64,000 nucleotides of DNA from Roseateles sp. (GCF_039929605.1 NZ_JBDSQX010000028.1:1575-65574), one strand, 5' to 3'; shown: positions 12,001 to 15,000, numbered from the stretch's first letter. Numbers: made by a program.

Positions 12001-15000
12001 CGACCAGATTTTGCAGACAGCGTCTGCAAAATCTGGTCGGCAGGCCAAGCCAGGTAGGAAGCTGCGCATCTGCGCCAGGTTGCGCCAGCCAAAGCCGCGC
12101 CCGAACCGCCGAGTCAGGTCGCCGCCCAGGCGCTTGATCAGGTCTTCGCCGTAAACCGCCCGCTCCCGCCCGCCCTGCTCAAACTCAACGATACGCCGGC
12201 CGATCTCCCAGTAGCTCGCCGTCATCAACGCGTTGACGCTGCGGGCGGCTGCATGGCGGGCCGCCTCCAGCAGGCTGACGATGTCGCCATGGATGCCGCT
12301 GTAGCCCGGCTGTGCATCGGCGCTGCCGGGAGCGAGTTCGCTCATGCCTGCACCTCGTCCCAGTCGCGTCTCACGCACTCTCCCAGGCTGTTGTCTAGTG
12401 GTAGGCCGTGCAGGACTTGAACCTGCGACCAAAGGATTCCGGTTTGTGCCCATTTCTGGACTCCCTGGACTATGCCTTCGCCATGGGCCGTGAGGCCGGT
12501 AGGCGGGCGCCGTCTAGTCTCTACACCTTCCCCTCGCGGGGCTTGGCTCGGCGTTGCCTTGTGCCTTGCGGCCGTCAGGTTTCGCCGAATTTGACGCCAT
12601 TCACGCGGGCGCTTTCGCCGCCCGGTGCACAACTTTCGCTATGAGTCCTCTGCTCTAACCAACTGAGCTAACGGCCCACTGAACAACAACTCCCTTGTCT
12701 GGAAGAAGGGGCGGATTCTAATCGTCGCCTGAACAGCCTAATCAGCGTTGACTGAGCGCCTGCCCAACCATGCGCGACGTGATGTCGACGATCTGGATCA
12801 TGCGGTCGTAGGCCATGCGCGTGGGGCCGATGACGCCGAGCGTGCCGACGATCTGGCCATCCACTTCGTAAGGCGCCGACACGATGGACAGCTCCTCGTA
12901 GGGCACGACCTTGCTCTCGCCGCCGATGTAGATGCGCACGCCCTCGGCGCGGCTGGATGTGTCGAGCAGGCGCATCAGCTGCGTCTTCTCTTCGAACAGG
13001 TCGAAGAGGCGGCGCAGGCTACCCATGTCGTGGCTGAAGTCCTGCACGGTCAGCAGGTTGCGTTCGCCGGAGACGACCATCTGTTCGTCCTGCTGCTCCA
13101 TGGCCTCGGTGCCGACCTTGACGGCCGCGCTCATCAGCTGGGCGATCTCGCCGCGCAGCTCGTCGACTTCGCCGCGCAGGCGTTCGCGCACGCCTTCCAG
13201 CGTCAGGCCCGCGTAGCCGGCATTCAGGCGTTTGCTGGCTTCGGCCAGTTCGCTCTGGGTCAGGTCTTGTGCCGTGAAGATGACGCGGTTCTGCACGTCG
13301 CCATCCGGCGAGACGAGGATGACCAGCACGCGCCGCTCGCCCAGGCGCAGGAACTCGATGTGGTGGAAGACACTGGGCTTCTTGGGCGACGTGACCACAC
13401 CGACGAAGCTCGACAGGTTGGACAGCATCTGCGCGGCGCTGGCGATGACGCGCTGGGGCTGGTCCGGCTGCAGGCGGTTCGTCTCGACGCCAATGAGGGC
13501 GGGCTGGGCCGTCAGCATGGTGTCGACAAACAGGCGGTAGCCGCGCGCCGTGGGAATGCGGCCCGCGCTGGTGTGCGGGCTGGCGATGAGGCCGAGTTCT
13601 TCCAGGTCGGCCATCACATTGCGGATGGTCGCCGCGCTGAGTTCCAGGCCGGAGGCCTTGGACAGCGTGCGCGAACCCACGGGTTGACCGTCCGCGATGT
13701 AGCGTTCAACCAGGGTTTTCAGCAGGGATTTGGATCGCTCGTCGAGCATGGGTCAATCTTATGGCTTGCGTGCCAGACCGCCCGAGCGTAGCGAGTAGCT
13801 CTGGCTCCAACTGACTAAAGCTTGCGTGCCAGACCGCCCGAGCGCAGCGAGTAGCTCTGGCTCCAACTGACTGAGAACTGGCCCCTTTCCTCCACGGAGA
13901 GGCGATACCCCTGTGGTGTAATTTGCCGCATGGCCGAGCGCTTCAGACATGTCGCCATCGTGGGCAAACATCAAGCGCCGGGCATCAGGCCGGTGCTGGA
14001 GGAGATTGCCCAATTTTTGTGCAGCAACGGGCTCGAGGTTTCGCTCGAAGCGGAAACGGCGCTCAACACCGGGCTGACCGACTATGACGCCCTCTCCCAC
14101 GACCAACTCGGCAAGGCCTGCGACCTGGCCGTCGTCGTCGGCGGCGACGGCACCATGCTGGGCTTTGCGCGCGAGATGGCGCGCTACGGCGTGCCGCTGC
14201 TGGGCATCAACCAGGGGCGGCTGGGCTTCATCACCGACATCCCCATCGAACGCTGGCGCGAATCGCTGGCGCCCGTGCTGGCCGGCGACTACGAGGTGGA
14301 GTCGCGCGCGATGCTGGAAGGCGCCGTGCTGCGCGACGGCGAAACCATCTTCTCGGGCCTGGCGCTCAACGACGTCGTCGTCAGCCGCGGCGGCACGGCG
14401 GGCATGGTGGAGCTGAAGGTCGACGTCGGCGACCAGTTCGTCGCCAACATGCGTGCCGACGGCCTCATCGTCGCCTCGCCCACCGGCTCCACGGCCTATG
14501 CGCTGTCGGCCGGCGGCCCGCTCATGCACCCCAGCATCGCCGGCTGGCTGCTGGTGCCGATTGCCCCGCACACGCTGTCTAACCGACCCATCGTGCTGCC
14601 CGACCTGGGCGAAGTCAGCCTGGAAATTCTGGCCGGGCGCGACGTGTCGGTGAACTTCGACATGCAAAGCCTGGCCAGCCTGCTGCACGGCGACCGCATC
14701 ACCGTGCGGCGCAGCCAGCATCAGGTCCGCTTCCTGCACCCCAAGGGCTGGAGCTATTACGCGACGCTGCGTCGCAAGCTTCGCTGGTACCTGTAGCCTT
14801 TTCCCGAACCCCACCATGCTGCGGCACCTCAGTCTCAAGGACTTCGTCATCGTCCCGGTCCTCGAACTCGATTTCGAGCCGGGCTTCGCCGTGCTGACCG
14901 GCGAGACCGGCGCGGGCAAGTCCATCCTCATCGACGCGCTGCAACTGGCCCTGGGCGGCCGGGGTGAGGCGGGCGTCGTGCGCGAAGGCGCGGCCAAGGC

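Follow-up and report, generated by a model that had tools for sequence, protein, structure and literature searches.

A tRNA(CAU) gene on the minus strand of a Roseateles sp. draft genome, at positions 12399-12677 of the 64,000-nt stretch of DNA analyzed here (the window), carries a 202-nt insert directly 3′ of its anticodon. Comparison with related genes and introns indicates that this is very probably a functional tRNA-Ile2 gene, split at 36/37 by a self-splicing group I intron of subgroup IC3 that is homologous to the intron of Azoarcus pre-tRNA-Ile (class Ile2.5Ug).

RESULTS

Anatomy of the split tRNA gene

The gene consists of a 37-nt 5′ exon (12641-12677), the 202-nt insert (12640-12439, between base 36 and base 37), and a 40-nt 3′ exon (12399-12438). 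Read on the minus strand from 12677 to 12399, it begins with GGGCCGUUAGCUCAGUUGGUUAGAGCAGAGGACUCAU, continues with the insert, whose ends are AGCGAAAGUUGUG and CACAAACCGG, and finishes with AAUCCUUUGGUCGCAGGUUCAAGUCCUGCACGGCCUACCA. The 5′ exon, which ends in CUCAU, holds the 5′ strand of the acceptor stem, the D arm, the 5′ strand of the anticodon stem, and the anticodon loop up to CAU; the 3′ exon (AAUCC...ACCA) holds A37 and A38, the 3′ strand of the anticodon stem, the variable loop, the T arm, the 3′ strand of the acceptor stem, and CCA. Joined in silico, the two exons form a regular 77-nt cloverleaf with an encoded CCA, and the predicted exon-exon junction links ...GGACUCAU to AAUCCUUU... 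(also written as GGACUCAU followed by AAUCCUUUGG). Against uninterrupted genes of the genus, the 5′ exon shows 97 to 100% identity to the corresponding half, and the 3′ exon matches its counterpart in the intronless genes of four genomes (G002, G008, G018, and G031) at 100% identity.

Default ARAGORN missed the split gene and called only a tRNA-Gln elsewhere in the window. An earlier note on this DNA had proposed ARAGORN with introns allowed as a check, and this run reported tRNA(cat) with i(38,202), which places a 202-nt intron behind base 37 of the gene, over exactly 12399-12677. Together with the in silico joining, it showed the boundaries, lengths (37 + 202 + 40), and splice points given in that note to be exact. 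About 30 other intron calls made by the same program genome-wide were without a group I match and were rejected as false positives.

The insert matches the group I intron model and carries the elements of a compact ribozyme

The Rfam covariance model Intron_gpI (RF00028) matched the insert over its full length (model positions 1-253) with a score of 41.1 bits and an E value of 3.4e-9; across the 6.09-Mb genome, the E value was 1e-8, and no second match was present. A group I covariance-model match, which had been named beforehand as a test of the reading, therefore exists, though below the curated gathering score of 50 for this family; it was found in E-value mode. At gathering thresholds, Rfam returned nothing at the split gene and reported only a cobalamin riboswitch (42513-42743, plus strand, 83.2 bits) and the tRNA-Gln in the window. 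The Intron_gpI seed contains no bacterial sequences, and a published survey accepted scores of 18 to 20 bits (10.1101/2020.01.27.920355). Since the single-sequence folding energy was no better than that of shuffled sequences (z = -1.2), we relied on comparative evidence instead.

All elements lie on the minus strand. P1 (12628-12643, CAU-AGC-GAAA-GUU-GUG) pairs exon CAU and intron AGC, across a GAAA loop, with GUU and the guide GUG, which places a U.G wobble (pair 12641/12630) at the 5′ splice site between 12641 and 12640; the C-G, A-U, and U.G pairs are invariant in 17 of 17 homologues. Within P1, the GUU at 12631-12633 is complementary to the first 3′-exon bases, AAU (12438-12436), and by the group I mechanism would form P10 with them. 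P2 is a hairpin with a GAAA tetraloop, L2 (12602-12627). The 5′ strand of P3, GGCGUC (12593-12598), pairs with GGCGCC (12511-12506), and P4 (UUCGGCG/CGCCGAG, 12547-12589, from RNAalifold and pair counts) encloses J4/5 and P5/P5a with its GCAA loop. The P6/P6a hairpin (12526-12546) is followed by the 5′ strand of P7, GACUA (12515-12519), which pairs with UAGUC (12472-12468) to give the guanosine-binding helix, pseudoknotted with P3. The P8 hairpin (12479-12505) and the P9 hairpin GUCCA-GAAA-UGGGC (12448-12461), whose loop L9 is GAAA like L2, complete the fold, and the last intron nucleotide is omega-G (12439), invariant in 17 of 17 homologues. There is no P5abc extension. When the sequence was read back, each of the P1, P10, P3, P7, and P9 elements and the terminal G named in the earlier note was found at its position.

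Same-site homologues covary in support of the fold

Among 60 relatives searched, four further species of the genus had the interrupted gene, at 90 to 97% identity, and one more example (71% identity) came from a 0.9-Mb genome belonging to a different family. A core-pattern scan of public genomes and a sample of 401 genomes from the order added more introns at this site, whose named hosts are Polynucleobacter, Neisseriaceae, and Propionivibrio, among others. Seventeen same-site introns were aligned and scored against the canonical P1-P9 structure, with P3/P7 included and P7 treated as a pseudoknot. Standard pairs formed in 96.2% of cells, versus 30 to 42% when the 3′ partners were slid by one to three columns, and changes on both sides were seen in 23 of the 55 pairs. 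None of 500 shuffles reached any of the five measures.

Covariation was heavy in P2 (compensatory changes in 5 of 7 inner pairs), P5a (3 of 3 pairs), P6a (4 of 6 for P6/P6a), P8 (4 of 6), and P9 (4 of 5, with the GAAA loop invariant), and P5a, P6a, P8, and P9 vary by compensatory changes even within the genus. The third pair of P3 (alignment columns 51/161) is always formed, as U-A in nine sequences and as C-G in eight; P7 is likewise 100% paired and includes one swap from A-U to U-A in the homologue from G333. J3/4, J4/5, J6/7, and J8/7, like the terminal G, are invariant across the 17 homologues and intact in the studied copy. By these comparisons, the insert is a real ribozyme fold under selection.

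A 96-aa open reading frame on the minus strand and a 78-aa frame on the plus strand overlap the insert, which could be taken to favor a protein-coding region, a chance resemblance, or an assembly artifact. Neither frame has a Pfam match, and neither is present in a collection of 15 billion proteins searched by exact look-up. In five species, assembled independently of one another, and also in other families, the insert is found at this very site, and the covariation tracks RNA pairing rather than codons. The same-site homologues and the covariation effectively refute this explanation, to which we assign next to no probability. The overlapping frames also lend no support to the suggestion that ORF callers misread the region as protein, as none of them is on record as such.

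The intron belongs to the class of the Azoarcus ribozyme

In Azoarcus, the anticodon loop of tRNA-Ile is interrupted by an intron of 205 nt, flanked by exons of 37 (+2 G) and 40 nt (PMC13168695). The 202-nt intron studied here shares with it the host gene, the site after CAU, U-1, omega-G, and the 37- and 40-nt exons (PMC13168695), as well as the CAU/GUG pairing of P1, GAAA in both L2 and L9, and the lack of a P5abc extension and of an open reading frame; both hosts are betaproteobacteria. A published primer gives the 3′ end of the Azoarcus intron as ...GGCGAAAGUCACACAAACCGG, to which the end CACAAACCGG found here corresponds, with the last ten bases equal (PMC2241849). The two differ in host genus and in P2, which is CACCGGGCGGC-GAAA-GCGCCCGCGUG here versus a 5′ end of GUGCCUUGCGCCGGGAA... 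in Azoarcus, a comparison confined to the primer-derived ends. The Azoarcus type of P2 occurs in no member of the studied genus; its nearest named relatives are in a Proteobacteria metagenome-assembled genome (L107, 78% identity) and in Propionivibrio (L115, 75%), over about 150 to 170 nt only.

A further difference from Azoarcus lies in the receptor segments of P5 and P8, which are noncanonical here. P5 (CCUGAC...ACAAGG) departs from the canonical 11-nt receptor motif of most homologues, and in the alignment, P8 reads CCUACC...CCAUGG versus the tetraloop-receptor motif CCUAAG...UAUGG in most of them. As these segments deviate from the receptor that stabilizes the Azoarcus fold, the insert might belong to the same class without being robustly self-splicing and might require a host protein or RNA chaperone in vivo; dependence on cofactors is common among group I introns (reviewed in PMC3984707). 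We consider such a requirement unlikely, as the L2 and L9 GAAA loops are retained, the helices are very G+C rich, and another lineage (L107) shares this form of P8, which marks it as a tolerated natural variant. A self-splicing intron remains the preferred reading.

Ile2.5Ug is one of four classical classes of bacterial tRNA genes split by group I introns, all of them IC3, and a survey of about 80,000 genomes recorded 5292 group-I-split tRNA genes (Williams, 10.1101/2020.01.27.920355). The present intron has the tRNA-Ile2 host, anticodon-loop position 5, U at -1, omega-G, and IC3 type of this class, from which no categorical difference separates it, so that it stands as another member. The literature and these membership features bear out the earlier reading of a tRNA-Ile(CAU) split after position 36 by a compact IC3 intron at the Azoarcus site. 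On sequence features, then, the intron belongs to the well-known Azoarcus class, a textbook and widespread kind.

The IC3 introns of tRNA-Leu(UAA) genes (class Leu.3Ug; cyanobacteria, plastids, and proteobacteria) have a homologous core, 75 to 82% identical over P3-P7, but differ in the tRNA, in the site between U34 and A35, in the guide, and in the 3′ domain, which is longer and has additional P9 elements. The tRNA-Leu(UAA) gene of the studied genome is uninterrupted. Other members of the genus carry an IC3 intron between U34 and A35 of this gene: L008 to L011 (in G027, G018, G034, and G002) and G020:C15:332207-332342, so that G020 carries both the Ile and the Leu introns. In a genome of the same family (G316), a homologous intron (L156, 77% identity over 173 nt) lies in tRNA-Arg(CCU) after the anticodon, which is the classical Agrobacterium-type site. 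In Candidatus Accumulibacter iunctus (L121, DDUX01000115.1), an Ile2-like tRNA(CAU) gene is interrupted elsewhere, apparently between U33 and C34, by an intron whose 3′ domain resembles the tRNA-Leu type. Finally, a metagenome-assembled genome labeled Methanosarcinaceae archaeon has a group I intron of 74.9 bits, above the Rfam cut-off, at L073:1549-1783 on a contig of 37% G+C (JAIPUR010000020.1). ARAGORN and Rfam detected no tRNA at that site; this may mean that the intron sits in a protein gene or that the contig is misbinned.

The intron is a presence/absence polymorphism downstream of hrcA

The split gene follows hrcA, the gene of the heat-shock repressor, on the same strand at a distance of 64 nt, and the intervening DNA showed no consensus promoter. 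Species that lack the intron have the two exons directly joined at this locus next to hrcA, which makes the intron a precise presence/absence polymorphism. Of 37 genomes of the genus, five carry it. In a tree of hrcA, the three carriers that retain the linkage to this gene are scattered, and the studied genome is sister to the intronless G008 (support 97/95). All carriers have the T-stem allele GCAGG, and most intronless genes have ATTGG. Either a transfer of the entire allele or repeated loss would fit this distribution, and one gene tree does not separate the two. The intron contains no open reading frame and has no room for an endonuclease gene. In the order (GTDB Burkholderiales, betaproteobacteria), a homologous intron was found in 39 of 401 genomes, in at least nine of them at the Ile2 site. 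The order was assigned through G123, a member of it whose sequence agrees at 100% with Neisseriaceae bacterium TC5R-5 over 2.5 kb.

Identity of the tRNA and dependence of AUA decoding on the split gene

The best E. coli match of the spliced sequence is 86 to 87% identical and is annotated as tRNA-Ile in all 5426 complete genomes. TilS is encoded in a 463-aa open frame (TIGR02432, 157.1 bits versus a cut-off of 93.6). Two other CAU tRNAs are present in the genome; one is clearly initiator-like, and the other, on contig C34, is ambiguous by BLAST, its best E. coli match being a prophage tRNA-Ile2 at 80.5%. In complete genomes of the genus, the CAU tRNAs fall into exactly three types, namely, an fMet type, the type found on C34, and the one next to hrcA, so that, by elimination, the C34 gene is elongator Met and the split gene is Ile2. 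The acceptor pairs C4-G69 and C5-G68, which we take to be TilS determinants in E. coli, are present in the split tRNA and absent from the C34 tRNA. The assignment as Ile2 is thus made partly by elimination and also on the best E. coli match, the presence of TilS, and the single copy.

No second Ile2-type gene was found in the assembly, a draft of 209 contigs that is 95.7% complete and lacks rRNA operons; as a second copy may lie in unassembled DNA, the single-copy status is not final. The frequency of AUA is 0.48 per 1000 codons, and about 18% of 3364 long, high-GC3 open reading frames contain it. Judged from the gene content, AUA decoding should depend on splicing of the split gene. The earlier note had made this dependence conditional on there being no other tRNA-Ile2, and the single Ile2-type gene in the 95.7%-complete assembly, the presence of TilS, and the use of AUA speak in its favor.

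The assembly is without 16S rRNA, and ARAGORN found no tRNA-Ile(GAU), tRNA-Ala(UGC), or tRNA-Trp in it; the rRNA operons, along with some further parts of the genome, are unassembled. In the closest intronless relative, G008, tRNA-Ile2 is encoded twice, by copies that lie 9 kb from each other and differ in their T-stem alleles, ATTGG and GCAGG (C97:106863-106891 and 115942-115970; L198 and L204). The gaps in the draft, the two copies in G008, and the noncanonical receptor motifs would suit a different history, in which the intron has decayed and no longer splices, the tRNA is a pseudogene, and AUA is read by another tRNA-Ile2 encoded in the unassembled 4% or so of the genome. A relic of this kind is, in our estimate, very unlikely. 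All columns invariant in the 17 homologues are intact here, every helix pairs, and the exons are intact and form a perfect cloverleaf. Moreover, the retention of the intron by five species at 90 to 97% identity, with compensatory changes, points to purifying selection on the fold. The evidence thus favors a functional split gene over a decayed one.

DNA adjoining the 3′ end of the tRNA gene

A direct repeat of the 12 nt that end the tRNA (12399-12410; TGGTAGGCCGTG on the plus strand) lies 4.5 kb downstream, at 7921-7932, and 17 of 20 bases match when the repeat is extended. The DNA between the two repeats had no counterpart downstream of the tRNA gene in relatives, which fits a small islet integrated at the tRNA 3′ end. 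Just downstream of the tRNA, a gene for a YhcG/DUF1016 PD-(D/E)XK nuclease (minus strand, 11187-12453) is split into two overlapping open reading frames, of which 11965-12453 covers positions 1-76 of DUF1016_N and 11187-12092 covers positions 73-137 and YhcG_C. To judge from this arrangement, the nuclease gene is probably frameshifted or a pseudogene. One idea, of low probability, is that the split in the anticodon-loop region might change how this tRNA gene serves islands as an integration site.

DISCUSSION

From the ribozyme elements and the intact exons, we infer that the tRNA is spliced along the established group I pathway, from which the following steps are taken. CAU at the end of the 5′ exon would pair with the guide GUG in P1, setting the U.G wobble at the splice site, and free guanosine bound in P7 would cleave after U36. 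The AAU of the 3′ exon would then pair with GUU as P10, the terminal G at 12439 would enter the same site in P7, and exon ligation would yield the 77-nt tRNA. As in Azoarcus, the L2 and L9 tetraloops presumably hold the fold together. Lysidine modification by TilS would then let the CAU anticodon of the product read AUA.

A regulatory extension of this scheme is conceivable, in which splicing gates AUA decoding: the sole supply of tRNA-Ile2 would be tied to hrcA transcription and to temperature- or Mg2+-dependent folding of the ribozyme and would tune the approximately 18% of genes that contain AUA. We regard this as highly improbable, and our interpretation is limited to a split gene that yields a functional tRNA-Ile2.

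The locus matters mainly for annotation: default tRNA finders and the Rfam gathering threshold miss the gene, so that the genome would seem to be without an AUA decoder. For the ribozyme, the locus provides a divergent natural variant of the much-studied Azoarcus intron, one that departs from it in P2 and in the tetraloop-receptor segments. For the genus, the series of presence and absence (5 of 37 genomes, on one tRNA allele) could serve the study of how tRNA introns without an open reading frame spread.
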